Of a stretch of DNA of 11,523 bases, positions 2,098 through 9,550 are shown in pieces. Position 1 is the stretch's first letter, and every line of letters starts with the position of its first letter. A program made the translations under genes and the position numbers. The stretch covers positions 1-11,523 of the forward strand of contig CAYJVT010000025.1 of the NCBI GenBank assembly GCA_964373695.1, in the 5' to 3' direction. This DNA comes from an uncultured archaeon. GTDB taxonomy: Archaea; Aenigmatarchaeota; Aenigmatarchaeia; GW2011-AR5. The notes below the pieces were generated by a model. The model was given only the letters and a program-made list of their open reading frames with translations. It was not told the DNA's origin and made no database searches.

Positions 2098-5000
2098 ATG
2101 GAGGAGTACAAAACTTTACTAAAGTCTTTCAAGGATTCTGTAGGATTCATAGACCACCAGATAAAGTCGTTCAACGAATTCGTTGATTTCCGCGTCCAGA
2201 AGATAATAAACGAGATAGGCGAGATACAGCTCGAGACGCCTGAGCTTGCCGAGTTCAAGATACAGCTCGGAAAGGTCAGGATACCGCAACCGTGCGTAAA
2301 GGAGGCCGACGGCGCCACGAGGACGATAACACCTTTCGAGGCGAGGATACGCGACCTGACTTATTCTTCCCCCATATATGTCGAGATGATACCCATCATA
2401 AACGGCGTGAAGCAGGAGCCGCAGGAAGTCAAATTAGGGGATTTGCCGATAATGCTAAAGTCGAAGATGTGCACGCTGAACGGGATGAGCGAAGAGGAGC
2501 TTGTGGATAGCGGAGAGGATGCAAGGGACCCGGGAGGCTATTTCATAATCAACGGCACCGAGAGGGTCATAGTCATGGTAGAAGAGGTCCTCTCGAACAG
2601 GCCCATAACAGAGGTGAAGAAGGACGGTGAAAGCGCCAGGATAAACTCCGAGGCGTCCGGCTTCGTGCAGAGACACCTGATAGAGAGGAAGAGCGGCATA
2701 ATAACCATATCGTTCGCCAACGTGAAGAAGCTGCCCGTCATCGTCCTGATGAGGGCGCTCGGGATGGAGACCGACAAGGAGATAATAGAGGCCATAACCA
2801 GCGAAAGGGACGAGATGCAGGAGATATACTTCAACATCTACGAATCCGATGTGAAGACGGTCGACGAGGGCAAGGACTTCATCAGCAAGAAGATGAAGAT
2901 AACCCAGAAGGAATACAGCGACAAGCGTGTCAACGACATACTGGACAAGTACCTGCTGCCGCACCTGGGGCAGGAGAAGAAGGCGAGGATGGACAAGGCC
3001 ATCTACCTGTCGAAGATAGTGAAGAAAATACTGAAGGTTGGCATGAAGAAGGCCGCCGAGCAGGACATAGACCACTACTCCAACAAGAGGCTCAGGATGG
3101 TCGGCGACTTCATGGAAATACTCTTCAGGTCGGTCCTGCTTGGAAAATACGGCCTCGTTTCGAGGATAGTATACTCATACCAGAAGCTCGTCAAGAGGGG
3201 CAAGATGCCATCGATAAAGTCCATAGTGGAGAGCGACTACCTGACGAAGAGGATAGTCTCGCACATGGCGACAGGGCAGTGGATAGGCGGCAGGACAGGC
3301 GTCTGCCAGCGCCTCGAAAGGACCAACTTCATAAGGACGGTGGCTCACCTCAGGAACGTCATCTCGCCCCTTTCGTCTTCGCAGGAGCATTTCGAGGCCA
3401 GGGCCCTGCACGGGACACACTGGGGAAGGCTGTGCGCGGAGGAGACACCCGAAGGGGTGAACATAGGGCTGAGGAAATACCTCGCGATAATGGCCATGAT
3501 TTCTGACACCTCGACAGAGAAGGAAAAAGAGCCGATACTGGACATGGCAAAGAAGGAGATGCCAATAGACACCAAGGGCATCACCGAAGGCAGGCATGTG
3601 GTGCTTCTCGATGGAAAGATACTGTGCACGACGGACCAGCCGGAAAAATTCGTGCAGAAGCTCCGCGACAAGAGAAGGTCCGGCGCCCTGGATTCGGGAA
3701 TAAACGTTTCGTTCGTGCCCGAGTTCGAGGAAGTCCACATAAACACGGACTCCGGAAGGCTGCAGAGGCCTCTTATAATAGTGGAGAACGGGAAGCCCAG
3801 GCTCACCGAAGAGCATGTGGAGAAGCTGAAGAAAGGTGAAATATCATGGAATGAGCTGATAAAGAACGGCGTTATCGAATACCTCGACGCGGAGGAGGAG
3901 AACAACGCCTACGTGGCCCTGAACAGGAACTACATAAACAATGACAGGAGCCATATGGAAATAAATGACGGGATATTACTGGGGCTCTCGGCGTCCTTGG
4001 TGCCGTTCCCGACGCACGACAGGGGGGACAGGGTGAATTTCGGCGCCAAGATGTTCGGCCAGGCCCTCGGCATATTTGCCACGAACTACCTCATGAGGAC
4101 CGACACGAAATCCGACATACTCGCGTATTCGCAGATACCGCTGGTCACGACGGCGGTGACGGACCAGGTCAACCTCGACGAGCATCCGCAGGGGCAGAAC
4201 ATAATCATAGCGATGATGAGCTACAAGGGCTACAACATGGAGGACGGCATAGTCTTCAACAAGGCCTCCATAGAGAGGGGATTCGGAAGGTCTTATTTCT
4301 TCAGGAGCTACGTCACCGAAGAGAAAAAATACTGGGGAATAGAGAAGGACGAGATAAAGATACCCGACAAGAGCGTCAACGGATACAAGACCGAGGAATC
4401 ATACGCCAACCTGGACCAGGACGGCGTGATAAACAGGGAGATAGAGGTCGCGGCGGGCGACGTCATAGTGGGCAAGGTCTCGCCGCTCCGCTTTTTTGGC
4501 CCGGTCGAAAGCTTCATGTCGGAGACCGAGAACAGGAGGGAGACCTCGGAAATCATAAGGTACGGCGAGGAAGGGATAGTGGACAACGTCATCGTTAGCG
4601 AGACTATAAACGGCAACAAGCTCGTCAAGATAAATGTCAGGACCGAGAGGATACCGGAGCTCGGGGACAAGTTCACCAGCAGGCACGGCCAGAAGGGCGT
4701 CATATCGCTTATAGTCCCGGAGGAGGACATGCCTTTCACCGAGAACGGCGTGATACCGGACATCATAGTAAATCCGCACGCAATACCGTCCAGGATGACC
4801 ATAGGGCAGCTCCTGGAGATCGTAGCCGCCAAGGTGTCGGCGTTAACAGGAACGAGGGTGGACGCGTCCGCGTTCAACAACGACGAGGCCGTGAGCGAGG
4901 AGTCGCTCAGGAAGGCGCTCACCCACATGGGATTCAGGGACGACGCCAAGGAGCCTATGTACCACGGCGTGAGCGGAAAGAAGCTCGAGGGGCGCATACT

Positions 5001-5394
5001 CGTCGGGCCGTGCTACTACCAGAAGCTGCACCACATGGTCGCGAACAAGCTCCAGGCAAGGGCCAGGGGTCCTGTAACCCTGCTGACGAAGCAACCCACG
5101 GCCGGAAGGGCAAAGCAGGGCGGGCTGAGGCTGGGAGAAATGGAAAAGGACTGCTTAATAGCGCACGGAGCGGCGCTCCTCCTGAAGGAGAGGTTCAGTT
5201 CCGACAGGTACACGATACCGATATGCAAGCAGTGCGGGCTTGTGGCGGTGGAAGACCACATCAAGGGAAAGAAATACTGCGCAGTATGCAAGAAGAGCAA
5301 GATAACCGACGTCGAGATGTCTTACGCATTCAAGCTCATGCTCGACGAGCTCAAGTGCCTGGGCATATATCCCAGGGTCATTGCAGACGAGTGA
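2098..5394 (+). CDS. rpoB: DNA-directed RNA polymerase subunit B (Rpo2), unsplit, 1098 aa
   Basis: GGYFIINGTERV, ETPEG, YNMED, GDKFTSRHGQKG, PSRMT, YYQKLHHMV, GGLRLGEME and a C-terminal CxxC...CxxC zinc site. No B'/B'' split and no intein. Confidence 0.98.
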   Translation: MEEYKTLLKSFKDSVGFIDHQIKSFNEFVDFRVQKIINEIGEIQLETPELAEFKIQLGKVRIPQPCVKEADGATRTITPFEARIRDLTYSSPIYVEMIPIINGVKQEPQEVKLGDLPIMLKSKMCTLNGMSEEELVDSGEDARDPGGYFIINGTERVIVMVEEVLSNRPITEVKKDGESARINSEASGFVQRHLIERKSGIITISFANVKKLPVIVLMRALGMETDKEIIEAITSERDEMQEIYFNIYESDVKTVDEGKDFISKKMKITQKEYSDKRVNDILDKYLLPHLGQEKKARMDKAIYLSKIVKKILKVGMKKAAEQDIDHYSNKRLRMVGDFMEILFRSVLLGKYGLVSRIVYSYQKLVKRGKMPSIKSIVESDYLTKRIVSHMATGQWIGGRTGVCQRLERTNFIRTVAHLRNVISPLSSSQEHFEARALHGTHWGRLCAEETPEGVNIGLRKYLAIMAMISDTSTEKEKEPILDMAKKEMPIDTKGITEGRHVVLLDGKILCTTDQPEKFVQKLRDKRRSGALDSGINVSFVPEFEEVHINTDSGRLQRPLIIVENGKPRLTEEHVEKLKKGEISWNELIKNGVIEYLDAEEENNAYVALNRNYINNDRSHMEINDGILLGLSASLVPFPTHDRGDRVNFGAKMFGQALGIFATNYLMRTDTKSDILAYSQIPLVTTAVTDQVNLDEHPQGQNIIIAMMSYKGYNMEDGIVFNKASIERGFGRSYFFRSYVTEEKKYWGIEKDEIKIPDKSVNGYKTEESYANLDQDGVINREIEVAAGDVIVGKVSPLRFFGPVESFMSETENRRETSEIIRYGEEGIVDNVIVSETINGNKLVKINVRTERIPELGDKFTSRHGQKGVISLIVPEEDMPFTENGVIPDIIVNPHAIPSRMTIGQLLEIVAAKVSALTGTRVDASAFNNDEAVSEESLRKALTHMGFRDDAKEPMYHGVSGKKLEGRILVGPCYYQKLHHMVANKLQARARGPVTLLTKQPTAGRAKQGGLRLGEMEKDCLIAHGAALLLKERFSSDRYTIPICKQCGLVAVEDHIKGKKYCAVCKKSKITDVEMSYAFKLMLDELKCLGIYPRVIADE

Positions 5395-5399
5395 TAATC

Positions 5400-7871
5400 A
5401 TGACAAACATAAAATCGATAGGCTTCGGGTTCCTGTCGCCCAAGGTAATAAAGGAGATGTCCATGGTGAAGATAGAGCACGCGGAGCTCTACGACCCCGA
5501 CGGCTATCCGATAGACAACGGGCTGGCGGACCTCCACCTGGGCGTGGTGGACCCGGGGCTGAGATGCAGGACATGCGGCGGCACCATCGGCCAGTGCCTT
5601 GGCCATTTCGGGTACCTGGAGCTCGTGAAGCCGGTCGCCCACCCGCTGTACGGGAAGAAAATCTATCTTATACTCATGTCGACATGCAGGGAGTGCTCGA
5701 GACCCCTCGTGAACGAGGAAGAGCTGAAGAAGATGAGCAACCCACTGGCCATGATATACAAGAAAAGGAAGATGACATGCCCCCACTGCAAGGCCAAGCA
5801 GAAGGAGATGGAGTACCAGAAGCCCACGTCCTTCAGGGAGGGCAAGAACGAGCTTACGAGCGAGGAAGTCAGGCAGCGCCTAGAGAAGATAAGCGACGAT
5901 GACGTGAAGCTCATGAAGATAAAGGGCGGCAGGCCGGAATGGTTCGTGCTGACAATACTCCCGATACCGCCGGTGACAGTAAGGCCGTCAATAACGCTTG
6001 AGACCGGGGAGCGCAGCGAGGACGACCTCACGCACAAGCTCGTGGACATAGTCAGGATAAACGAGAGGCTGAGGAAGAACCTTGAGATAGGGGCTCCTGA
6101 TTTCATAATAGCGGACATATGGGAACTCCTCCAGTACCACGTGTCAACGCTCATGAGCAACGAGATATCGACTTTGCCGCCGGCAAGGCACAGGTCCGGC
6201 CGCGCACTAAAGACGCTCATGCAGAGGCTGAGCAAGAAGGAAGGCAGGTTCCGGGGCAACCTCTCGGGCAAGAGGGTGAACTTCGCGGCGCGTACCGTCA
6301 TAACGCCGGACTCTCAGATATCAATCAACGAGATAGGGGTTCCGCTCGAAATCGCGAAGGAGCTCACCATACTCGAAAAGGTGAACAAGAGCAACATTGA
6401 GCTCATGAAAACGCTCATACTGAACGGAAGCGCCGCATATCCCGGCGCGAACTACATCGTCAGGATGGACAATGTCAGGAAGAAGATAACCGACGAGAAC
6501 AAGAAGGAAGTATCCAACGAGATAGACGTCGGGTACATGGTCGAGAGGCATCTCAAGGACGGCGACATAGTCGTGATGAACAGGCAGCCTTCCCTGCACA
6601 GGATGAGCATGATGGCCCACCGCGTCAGGGTCATGCCGTTCAGGACGCTCCGCCTCAACCTGACGGTGACGATACCATACAATGCCGACTTCGACGGGGA
6701 CGAGATGAACATACACGTCCCGCAGACAGTGGAAGCCCAGACCGAGGCGAGGATGCTCATGAGCGTCGAGAAGCATATAAGGTCGCCGAGATACGGCCTC
6801 CCTGTCATAGCCGGAAAGCACGACCACATAACCGGCGCCTACCTCCTCACGAAGGACGACGCCAAGTTCACGAAGCAGGAAGCCGCGGACCTCCTGTTCT
6901 CGATAGGCATGGAGGACTTCGAGGCGAAGGAGGAGTACACAGGCAAGGAGATATTTAGCATGATACTCCCGAAGGAGCTCAGCGTGGAATACAAGTCGGC
7001 GTCAGGCGAGGAAGTCATAATAAAGAACGGCGTCCTGAAGAAGGGCGTCATAGACGACAGGTCTCTAGGCGAGAAGAAAGGGAAGCTCATAGACGTCATA
7101 GAGAGGAAATACGATCACGAGACCACGAGGAAGTTCATCGACAACGTATCGAGGCTGGCGCTGGAAGTGATAACGCGCAAGGGATTCAGCATATCCATCA
7201 GCGACGTGGACATAAGCCATAAGGCGTCCAAGAGGATAGAGAAGATACTCGAGGAATATGAGGAGACGGTGAACAAGCTCATAAAGGACTACAACGCGGG
7301 GCGAACGGAGAAGGTGCCGGGCATGACGCCCGAGATGGTCCTTGAGAACAGGATACTCCAGATGGGCGGAGGAGCCTCCAACCAAGCGAACGAGATAATA
7401 AAAGGCGACCTGCCGTGGAACTCTGCCGTCATCATGGCCAGGACGGGAGCGAGAGGAAGCTTCGTCAACCTGACGCAGATGTGCGGATTCGTCGGCCAGG
7501 AAACGCTGGGTGGAGAGAGGATAAACAGGGGATACGTGAACAGGACTCTTTCGTCGTTCAGGCCCGGGGAGATGAGCCTCAAGGCGAAGGGCTTCGTCGG
7601 CCGCGGATACAAAGTCGGCCTCGACCCTTTCGAGTTCTTCTTTGACGCCATGAACTCCAGGGAGAACCTCATGGACAAGTCGCTGCACACGAGGCACTCC
7701 GGATACATGGAGAGGCGCCTCGTCTCCGCACTGCAGGACCTCAGGGTGGAATACGACGGCACGGTGCGCGACAGCAAGAACCACATAATCCAGTTCGTTG
7801 CAGGGGAAGACGGTGTGGACCCGGCCAAGAGCGACGGCGGAAAGATCAACATGGAGAGGGTTCTGGGATGA
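5400..7871 (+). CDS. rpoA1: DNA-directed RNA polymerase subunit A' (Rpo1N), 823 aa; start moved from the ORF-track 5010 to ATG 5400
   Basis: CRTC...CLGHFG zinc site, GNLSGKRVNF, NRQPSLH and catalytic YNADFDGDEMN. MTNIKSIGFGFLSP follows the rpoB stop, with GAGTGA as SD. Confidence 0.97.
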   Translation: MTNIKSIGFGFLSPKVIKEMSMVKIEHAELYDPDGYPIDNGLADLHLGVVDPGLRCRTCGGTIGQCLGHFGYLELVKPVAHPLYGKKIYLILMSTCRECSRPLVNEEELKKMSNPLAMIYKKRKMTCPHCKAKQKEMEYQKPTSFREGKNELTSEEVRQRLEKISDDDVKLMKIKGGRPEWFVLTILPIPPVTVRPSITLETGERSEDDLTHKLVDIVRINERLRKNLEIGAPDFIIADIWELLQYHVSTLMSNEISTLPPARHRSGRALKTLMQRLSKKEGRFRGNLSGKRVNFAARTVITPDSQISINEIGVPLEIAKELTILEKVNKSNIELMKTLILNGSAAYPGANYIVRMDNVRKKITDENKKEVSNEIDVGYMVERHLKDGDIVVMNRQPSLHRMSMMAHRVRVMPFRTLRLNLTVTIPYNADFDGDEMNIHVPQTVEAQTEARMLMSVEKHIRSPRYGLPVIAGKHDHITGAYLLTKDDAKFTKQEAADLLFSIGMEDFEAKEEYTGKEIFSMILPKELSVEYKSASGEEVIIKNGVLKKGVIDDRSLGEKKGKLIDVIERKYDHETTRKFIDNVSRLALEVITRKGFSISISDVDISHKASKRIEKILEEYEETVNKLIKDYNAGRTEKVPGMTPEMVLENRILQMGGGASNQANEIIKGDLPWNSAVIMARTGARGSFVNLTQMCGFVGQETLGGERINRGYVNRTLSSFRPGEMSLKAKGFVGRGYKVGLDPFEFFFDAMNSRENLMDKSLHTRHSGYMERRLVSALQDLRVEYDGTVRDSKNHIIQFVAGEDGVDPAKSDGGKINMERVLG

Positions 7872-9550
7872 TGCTTTCAAAGAAAACCATGGACGATTTC
7901 GAGAAATACTGCAAGGAGAACAAGCTCAGCGACAAGCAGAAGGAGGAGAAACTGGCGCTCCTGCAGAAGCTCGTGATAAAATACATGTACGAGCCCGGCG
8001 AGGCCATCGGCATAATAGCCGCGCAGAGCATCTCAGAACCAGCGACCCAGATGTGCGCCGACTATAATGAAAAAATAATTGTAAAATTCAAAGAAAAAGT
8101 TTATAGTATAACAATAGGAGAGCTTGTAGACAGCGCTATGGATAAAAGTTGCGAAAAATTTAACGGCTATGAAATAAGAAATCTGCCGGGAGGAATTGAG
8201 ATTTTGGTTCCGAGTCTTGATGCTAATGAAAAAATAAGATGGAAAAAAATCACAGCCCTCTGCAGGCATGAAAGCCCCGAATTCCTGCTGGAAGTAAAAA
8301 CAAAATCGGGACGCTGCGTAAGAGCAACAGAATATCATTCATTTGTGACCAAAGTAAACGGTAAAATAATCCCTATTGCAGGCAAAGACCTGAAAATAGG
8401 CGACATGATACCGGCAATAAAAAATATTTCCAAATTATTCATAACAAATACCTTTGCAACCCAAAGTGGTATGCTCTTGTCAAGAAATACATCCGGTTCT
8501 GTTATTATGTGGGATGAAATAACAGAAATAAGGAAAATAAAACCCTCAGCGCCTTATGTTTACGACGTCACAGTGGATGAGAATCATACCTTTACAACTT
8601 CAGAAGGCCTGATTATTCACAACACCATGCGTTCGTACACGATGGCGTCGCAGAGCGACAGGCTGAGCAAGGTCACCCACGGGCTGCCACGGCTGATAGA
8701 GATATTCGACACCAGGAAGAGCTTCGAGAAGAACATGATGATATACCTGAAGCCCGAATGCAACACGAAGGAGAAGGCGAGGGACATAGCGAACATGATA
8801 AAGGAAAGCAGGATTGCCGACATAATAATTTCCGATTCCATAGACCTGGCGGAGAACTCGATAGAGATAGAGCTCGACAACGAGTCCGACAGGGACATCA
8901 CCAAGTCGGTCATAGAAAAGTACATCAAGGAAGCAGAAATAAGCTCCAGAGGCAGGAAGATAATAATAAAGCCCAAGAAGGAGAACATAAAGAACCTCAG
9001 GAAACTCAAGACGAAGGCGATGAGGCTCCACATAAGGGGCATCCAGAGCATAGACAACGTCGTCGTCATAAAGGACAATGAGGACTGGATAATACAGACC
9101 ACCGGGAGCAACCTCAAGAAAGTGTTCCAGATAGACGGGGTCGACATACACAGAACCACGACAAACGACATCTACCAGGTGCTCGAGGTGCTAGGCATAG
9201 AGGCCGCGAGGAACATGATACTCCGCGAGACGCTGAACACGCTGAGCGAGCAGGGGCTGGACGTGGACATCAGGCACATCCTGCTGCTTGCCGACATGAT
9301 GAGCTTCGACGGCACCGTGAAGGACATAGGACGCTACGGCGTTTCCGGCAAGAAGTCGTCAGTCCTGGCGAGGGCCAACTTCGAGGAGACGAAGAAGCAC
9401 CTGATAAACGCTTCGTTCTCCGGCGAGACGGACAAGCTCGACGGCATAATAGAGAACATAATAGTGGGCCAGATAGCACCTGTCGGCACCGGGATGGTCA
9501 AGCTCGGCATAGACATGGAAAAGATGAGGCAGATGGCCAGGAAAAAATAA
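7868..9550 (+). CDS. rpoA2: DNA-directed RNA polymerase subunit A'' (Rpo1C) precursor with intein; about 370 aa after splicing
   Basis: EPGEAIGIIAAQSISEPATQM, GLPRLIEIFD, LGIEAARN, DIRHILLLADMM, SVLARANFE, ENIIVGQIAPVGTG. ATGA overlap with the rpoA1 stop. Confidence 0.97.
   Translation: MMLSKKTMDDFEKYCKENKLSDKQKEEKLALLQKLVIKYMYEPGEAIGIIAAQSISEPATQMCADYNEKIIVKFKEKVYSITIGELVDSAMDKSCEKFNGYEIRNLPGGIEILVPSLDANEKIRWKKITALCRHESPEFLLEVKTKSGRCVRATEYHSFVTKVNGKIIPIAGKDLKIGDMIPAIKNISKLFITNTFATQSGMLLSRNTSGSVIMWDEITEIRKIKPSAPYVYDVTVDENHTFTTSEGLIIHNTMRSYTMASQSDRLSKVTHGLPRLIEIFDTRKSFEKNMMIYLKPECNTKEKARDIANMIKESRIADIIISDSIDLAENSIEIELDNESDRDITKSVIEKYIKEAEISSRGRKIIIKPKKENIKNLRKLKTKAMRLHIRGIQSIDNVVVIKDNEDWIIQTTGSNLKKVFQIDGVDIHRTTTNDIYQVLEVLGIEAARNMILRETLNTLSEQGLDVDIRHILLLADMMSFDGTVKDIGRYGVSGKKSSVLARANFEETKKHLINASFSGETDKLDGIIENIIVGQIAPVGTGMVKLGIDMEKMRQMARKK
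8054..8623 (+). mobile_element. mini-intein (190 aa, no endonuclease domain) in RpoA''
   Basis: Starts with Cys after TQM and ends with IIHN followed by Thr(+1). Block B TKSGRCVRATEYHSF and block F YVYDVTVDENHTF are present. Removal restores TQM-TMR. Hand-counted 60-nt samples: about 33% GC inside versus about 53% in the flanking extein. Confidence 0.96.

Follow-up and report, generated by a model that had tools for sequence, protein, structure and literature searches.

The catalytic subunit A'' of the RNA polymerase (Rpo1C, encoded by rpoA'') of an uncultured archaeon of the phylum Aenigmatarchaeota carries a threonine at the trigger-loop position of the histidine known as H1085 in yeast Rpb1 and H936 in Escherichia coli beta'. 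The gene is located on an 11,523-nucleotide stretch of DNA, which was analysed as a whole and is referred to as the window (contig CAYJVT010000025.1 of assembly GCA_964373695.1). The loss of the histidine is real, concerns a single-copy gene and is fixed across the order to which the organism belongs, and the new state is under purifying selection. The relevant elements of rpoA'' occupy the following positions; NTP stands for nucleoside triphosphate.

7868..9550, forward strand: rpoA'' (Rpo1C), 560 codons including an intein, with the Pfam matches RNA_pol_Rpb1_5 and Intein_splicing
8027..8053, forward strand: N-terminal arm of the trigger loop, Ser54-Met62, SISEPATQM, at the end of the N-extein
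8624..8695, forward strand: C-terminal part of the trigger loop, Thr253-Leu276, with the NTP-contacting Met254 and Arg255 kept
8639..8641, forward strand: Thr258, codon ACG, at the H1085/H936 position
8648..8650, forward strand: Ser261 in place of glycine
8651..8671, forward strand: longer loop tip, Gln262-Lys268, with two more residues than in histidine-bearing relatives

A preliminary description, made from the letters of the window, had given the sequence of the loop after removal of the intein, and translation yielded the same reading, ...EPATQM/TMRSYTMAS...KVTHGLPRL (the slash marks the splice point), within a frame that is open and intact over 7868-9550. For comparison, the rpoB-rpoA'-rpoA'' region was fetched from genomes of the window's order (12) and of other families in the phylum (14), and the three proteins were aligned. 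The alignment is ungapped around the site and anchored by an invariant Thr-Met-Arg. Thr258 faces histidine in 13 of the 14 outgroup sequences, Ser261 faces glycine in all 14, and the tip is two residues longer in the clade than in the outgroup. The three peculiarities of the loop that had been proposed earlier, namely threonine (ACG, 8639-8641) at the H1085/H936 position, serine for the glycine that follows and the extended tip, were thus all recovered.

The variant loop was present in all eight families (f1-f8) of the order. Among the best 120 homologues in a collection of 5.8 billion proteins, about 110 were readable across the loop, the rest being truncated proteins, and in the readable ones the tyrosine is followed by threonine, isoleucine or, once, arginine, and never by histidine. 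A degenerate DNA pattern for this loop, in which the longer tip was a fixed element, gave matches in 58 of about 185,000 species genomes, which are labelled Aenigmatarchaeota, archaeon or uncultured archaeon with the exception of one 1.9-kb contig binned as Methanosarcinales. The codons at the site among the fetched loci were ACG (16), ACC (10), ACT (7) and ACA (5) for threonine and ATA (2) for isoleucine; as related genomes are not independent samples, such counts describe a distribution and are not statistics. The canonical TFH, which in close relatives would have spoken for an assembly error, occurs in none of the readable homologues and genomes of the order. Error or chance is excluded as the source of the variant because the same loop is found in every readable genome of the order. 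Mean identity among 44 intein-free members of the clade was 92% over the 33 residues of the loop compared to 63% over the rest of A'', and this conservation, together with the use of all four threonine codons, indicates long-term purifying selection on the new state. It is highly probable that the variant is real, functional and selectively maintained.

The protein was assigned to the A'' family by a match to PF04998 (E-value 1e-36) and by alignments of its C-extein to solved archaeal Rpo1C chains (E-values 1e-61 to 1e-70), which as local alignments begin only downstream of the variant part of the loop. The substrate contacts by glutamine, methionine and arginine and the GLPR hinge are all present, the corresponding Gln61, Met64 and Arg65 (numbering of homologue P0003) are invariant in the 44 clade members, and the catalytic NADFDGD loop is intact in A' (428-434). 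What is missing is the trigger-loop histidine that contacts the beta-phosphate of the NTP, which is replaced by Thr258 here and by threonine or isoleucine throughout the order. Judged from its sequence, the protein clearly belongs to the A''/Rpo1C family but lacks one feature usually treated as defining. Compared to the canonical archaeal Rpo1C/Rpo1N of Pyrococcus furiosus (8cro), Thermococcus kodakarensis (4qiw) and Saccharolobus/Sulfolobus (2waq, 2pmz), it shares the identity of the subunit, the domain content and the operon position as well as the NADFDGD loop, the GLPR hinge and the methionine and arginine contacts to the substrate. In contrast, the canonical enzymes have the loop histidine, a glycine three residues on, a tip that is shorter by two residues, Ile/Ala-Gln in the loop of the NTP entry site and a bridge helix reading DTAV(R/K)T.

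No canonical paralogue was found in the source genome (1.02 Mb, 60 contigs, 91% complete). A search with the 560-residue query identified one rpoA'', and 12 further matches were all confined to the intein part; likewise, the relatives have one A'' per genome. The gene resides in its native operon, as seen from the order rpoH-rpoB-rpoA'-rpoA'', and in this respect the preliminary description, which had placed it in the native rpo operon, held. The closest database homologues are labelled Candidatus Aenigmarchaeota/Aenigmatarchaeota.

In the 26 other families of the phylum, of which about 40 genomes were read, the loop has normal length and reads Thr/Ser-Tyr-His-x-Ala-Gly. The sole exception outside the order is G250 (family f24, L049/L109, contig C15) with a serine (TCT) at the position of the histidine, which is kept in its congener G095 and in other f24 genomes; the serine of G250 is an independent replacement. 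To place the loss, a maximum-likelihood tree was calculated from RpoB and RpoA' (1899 columns, midpoint-rooted); A'' was omitted to keep the loop from affecting the topology. In this tree the genomes without the histidine form one clade, and their sister is the histidine-bearing G195 (family f34), which indicates a single loss of the histidine at the base of the order.

Across A', A'' and B, with approximately 2,300 residues aligned, very few fixed positions are specific to the clade, and these cluster in the entry-site loop, the trigger loop and the funnel helix. The changes in A'' that fall on the branch of the loss, being absent from the sister and all outgroups, are His258 to threonine, Gly261 to serine or threonine, the two additional tip residues, a fixed Lys268 and, just past the loop, a proline to Phe286 change with a one-residue deletion. 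On the same branch, A' acquired a proline to Leu45 change, Ile425, a glycine to alanine or serine change at 471 and Lys473, and B acquired a serine to Cys403 change and Pro971. The segments of A' concerned are:

6672..6701, forward strand: clade-specific Ile425, two residues before YNADFDGD, followed by the intact NADFDGD loop
6816..6821, forward strand: Lys473-His474 in the NTP entry-site loop, equivalent to E. coli beta' Ser503-Gln504
7338..7367, forward strand: funnel-helix segment Val647-Gly656, in which the conserved serine (647) and leucine (656) of histidine-bearing relatives are lost

We take position 647 of A' to be the equivalent of yeast Ser713 according to our own alignment, which is supported for the archaeal references. 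Substitution of Ser713 alters trigger-loop function in yeast. The equivalence of Lys473-His474 to Ser503-Gln504 was counted from the NADFDGD motif; the P. furiosus, T. kodakarensis and Saccharolobus enzymes have Ile/Ala-Gln opposite this pair. In E. coli, beta' Gln504 is part of the NTP entry (E) site, and the substitution Q504R alters the behaviour of the active site (PMC6237748). Lys473 is present in 48 of 48 distinct sequences without the histidine, as Lys-His in 41, Lys-Gln in six and Lys-Asp in one. As a strict correlate of the loss of the histidine, Lys473/His474 held only partly, with lysine in two of 18 histidine-bearing sequences and His474 in the sister; for this reason Lys473 is a candidate, not proven, compensating or permissive change. 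Family f13 (G045 and G055; L063 and L068) has kept the histidine and displays Ala-Ser for the following Ala-Gly as well as Lys-Gln or Lys-His in the entry-site loop of A'. By these residues, the family shows part of the changes of the histidine-less order while the histidine persists.

Other deviations of the enzyme are older than the loss. The preliminary description had counted the phenylalanine to tyrosine change and the change of SIG to SIS as parts of the event. However, both the tyrosine and the serine also occur in histidine-bearing families of the phylum, and these changes are therefore phylum-wide, predate the loss and stand outside the event. The same applies to the bridge helix of A', which had been linked to the loss as well:

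7635..7742, forward strand: strongly diverged bridge helix of A', DKSLHT where reference archaea have DTAVRT

Across the sampled phylum the helix reads DKSL-x-T as opposed to DTAV-R/K-T in the references, with Lys-Ser-Leu in place of the highly conserved Thr-Ala-Val and several further changes. Nearly all of this divergence, except glycine to Asn756, is common to histidine-bearing families. A coupling of the loss to the diverged helix was accordingly rejected, and from this comparison the divergence is a separate, older trait of the aenigmatarchaeal RNA polymerase.

The histidine of the trigger loop contacts the beta-phosphate of the NTP, and a role as general acid was proposed first. Papers published in 2024-2025 (PMC11343019, PMC12391331/PMC10002619) call it universally conserved in multisubunit polymerases, with the plant RNA polymerases IV and V (Pol IV/V) excepted. 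As cited in PMC10002619 and PMC11343019, the positional-catalyst model of the Landick laboratory is now favoured, and the latter paper cites Mishanina 2017 and Palo 2021 for a histidine that is replaceable and has a positional rather than an acid-base role. PMC5127505 describes yeast H1085L as healthy and H1085Q as only mildly defective, and this paper and PMC10002619 describe the funnel helices as tuning the trigger loop. The engineered yeast H1085 and E. coli H936 mutants and the archaeal enzyme have in common that the histidine can be replaced, and a natural threonine or isoleucine fits the positional view. However, the mutants are single laboratory changes in a background adapted to the histidine, whereas the archaeal replacement is natural, order-wide and accompanied by co-changes. 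Full-text searches, with incomplete coverage of the literature, found no published description of an archaeal trigger loop without the histidine; accordingly, no earlier characterisation of the variant, for which the preliminary description had allowed, was found in the literature searched.

We favour, as probable, the explanation that A'' is a functioning catalytic subunit encoded in single copy, in which the histidine was replaced at the base of the order by threonine, and in a few lineages by isoleucine, along with co-changes, and in which the new residue fills the space sterically. The loss of the histidine would then have occurred on the same branch as the glycine to serine or threonine change, the extension of the tip by two residues with a fixed lysine, and the changes at the sites of tip docking and NTP entry. 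The loop would still fold onto the NTP through the retained glutamine, methionine and arginine, which contact its base and ribose; it is expected to close on the substrate as usual because these residues, the hinge, the catalytic aspartate triad and the bridge-helix framework are intact. A beta-branched threonine or isoleucine may fill the position of the histidine, in keeping with a positional catalyst and with the partial replacement of histidine by leucine or glutamine, and such a residue next to a remodelled tip, funnel helix and entry loop would suit a steric role. The lost phosphate contact might in part be offset by basic residues, namely Lys268 in the tip and Lys473-His474 of A' at the entry site. 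The enzyme would probably be somewhat slower, and proofreading may be left to the transcript cleavage factor TFS, of which two intact copies are present. A further-reaching version, in which the phosphate-contacting function was moved off the mobile loop to Lys268 and the static Lys473-His474 of A' while threonine or isoleucine would merely act as space filler, appears unlikely.

Several observations weigh against the favoured explanation or parts of it. In the passages of PMC5127505 consulted, alanine, asparagine, aspartate and phenylalanine at H1085 are reported as lethal in yeast, and threonine and isoleucine are not among the substitutions named there; tolerance of threonine would therefore depend on context. 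The specific compensation scheme is drawn from sequence equivalence to residues described in papers, and we consider it rather doubtful. Lys473 is not exclusive to the clade, as it also occurs in the two histidine-bearing sequences of family f13, and His474 was already present in the histidine-bearing sister lineage. Families f2, f7 and f8 do not conserve the Asp-Arg pair of the tip. Finally, an AlphaFold2 model of the isolated subunit, calculated for P0003, an intein-free homologue with 95% identity, from an alignment of 44 sequences, had predicted local distance difference test (pLDDT) values of 30-47 in the loop, which is too unreliable for its fold or for distances.

The main alternative is a degenerate enzyme. 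Selection for speed would have been relaxed in reduced, probably slow-growing symbionts, and the loop would stay off the substrate, resulting in a slow, error-prone polymerase in which the loss is uncompensated. In its favour, the genome of about 1 Mb is of the DPANN type, and the lone change from histidine to serine in G250 suggests that the position can drift. There is also a precedent in plant Pol IV, which has a serine at the position of the histidine (NRPD1 Ser898), a loop that is off the NTP, and a substrate affinity and incorporation efficiency that are 6-7-fold lower (PMC11343019). Pol IV and the archaeal enzyme are alike in being natural multisubunit polymerases without the loop histidine and with a small hydroxyl residue instead. 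However, Pol IV is a specialised extra enzyme beside Pol II and has lost other substrate-contacting residues of the loop, whereas the archaeal enzyme is the cell's only polymerase and its other contacts are invariant. The archaeal A'' is thus not a specialised paralogue like Pol IV, since there is one A'' per genome and the contacts of the loop are kept. Degeneration is further opposed by the use of all four threonine codons, by the invariant hinge and by the sister lineages, which have equally small genomes and yet keep the histidine. No part of A'' is as well conserved within the clade as the variant loop (92% against 63%), and the other contact residues of the loop are extremely conserved too; this weakens the explanation, which we regard as quite unlikely.

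The role of the histidine might also be taken over in trans by a factor that acts through the secondary channel, for example a second TFS paralogue inserting a residue into the active centre. Two genes for TFS-like proteins are indeed present in the genome:

L111 1489-1803, contig C20 of G000, reverse strand: TFS (TFIIS-type Zn-ribbon) paralogue, 104 residues
L112 413-754, contig C20 of G000, reverse strand: TFS paralogue, 113 residues

They lie 7 kb apart and are both intact. At least two Zn-ribbon matches were obtained for 27 of 41 genomes of the order as opposed to 24 of 210 elsewhere in the phylum; however, the genomes are related, and match counts are not copy numbers. In addition, both paralogues resemble ordinary cleavage factors with the catalytic acidic Asp-Glu hairpin, and the early-branching families f2 and f8 lack the histidine and yet have a single TFS match. 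Duplication of TFS, although enriched in the order, was for that reason rejected as a strict correlate and is not tied to the loss of the histidine, and replacement in trans seems very improbable. The chance that the variant is an artefact of assembly, sequencing or alignment, or a decaying gene copy, is negligible. The source is a metagenome-assembled genome, and rpoA'' of a genome from the same genus (G001) contains frameshifts and a local duplication. However, dozens of independent assemblies produced by many studies agree on these residues, the frame is intact, the alignment has no gaps around the site and invariant residues on either side, and the step from histidine (CAY) to threonine (ACN) takes two base changes.

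The trigger loop is interrupted by an intein at the point between Met62 and Thr253:

8054..8623, forward strand: mini-intein of 190 residues, Cys63 to Asn252 (Intein_splicing, PF14890, E-value 3e-16)

The motifs of a class 1 intein are present, with Cys63 at position 1, the terminal His251-Asn252 and Thr253 as the +1 residue; the intact motifs and the essential host gene point to protein splicing. No endonuclease domain was detected within the 190 residues. The G+C content (GC) of the intein is 37-39% compared to 50-59% for the flanking exteins. The A'' intein of Methanocaldococcus jannaschii is likewise inserted in the trigger loop of an archaeal rpoA''. With such archaeal trigger-loop inteins the window copy shares the insertion point QM/TMR (Met/Thr), Cys1, the terminal His-Asn and Thr+1, but it differs by its length of 190 residues, the lack of a detectable endonuclease domain and a GC far below that of the host gene. 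The inteins of relatives at the same site have about 450-500 residues and a LAGLIDADG domain. A trigger-loop intein at the same point was also found in other families of the phylum, and the rpoA'' of G250 has a trigger-loop intein as well. Intein-like matches occur in at least six other large genes of the source genome (contigs C1, C2, C3, C8, C9 and C17).

Irregular rpoA'' frames were encountered in further genomes. In G001 (L010, contig C7), a local duplication of about 50 nucleotides around the loop is accompanied by a frameshift in the N-extein, which leaves an annotated protein that begins within the loop; this is apparently an artefact of assembly. Several histidine-bearing genomes have one in-frame stop inside the conserved rpoA'' match, namely TGA in G235, G200, G126, G112, G079, G158 and G165, TAG in G055 and G112, and TAA in G151. 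The stops are mostly TGA and cluster in families f18, f21 and f31; they could be due to recoding, sequencing errors or short introns.

The gene order in the window is rpoH-rpoB-rpoA'-rpoA''-L30e-NusA-S12-S7, with the genes upstream of rpoA'' located as follows:

1653-1916: rpoH
2098..5394, forward strand: rpoB, unsplit
5400..7871, forward strand: rpoA' (Rpo1N), 823 residues, start codon ATG at 5400

An rpoA' frame listed with a GTG start from 5010 overlaps rpoB and is an effect of open reading frame listing. Every sampled member of the histidine-less order has rpoB as one gene, but in the sister G195 and many further families of the phylum it is divided into two. Some outgroups have a continuous open frame that joins rpoA' with all of rpoB or with its second half (L101, L103, L104). 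G173 (family f7, L090, contig C2) has rpoA' and rpoA'' in a single open frame of 1190 residues, an apparent A'-A'' fusion like that of eukaryotic Rpb1.

Whether the trigger-loop histidine acts as a general acid or as a positional catalyst is a long-running question of transcription enzymology, and an entire archaeal order that runs its only polymerase on threonine or isoleucine constitutes a natural test of the function of this residue. The histidine-bearing sister lineage differs at a handful of positions in the active centre, which provides a small and defined set of natural substitutions to be tested, and with Pyrococcus and Methanocaldococcus there are established systems of reconstituted archaeal RNA polymerase. 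For annotation, profiles and alignments that assume the histidine will misalign the loop. If the phosphate contact had in fact been relocated, the active centre of a cellular RNA polymerase would have been rewired in this order, which would provide natural evidence that the 'universal' histidine acts by positioning, not as a chemical catalyst, and can be replaced. More generally, the variant bears on how catalysis, fidelity and cleavage depend on the histidine, and on how the enzyme can tolerate its loss through co-evolution of the entry site and the funnel helix.

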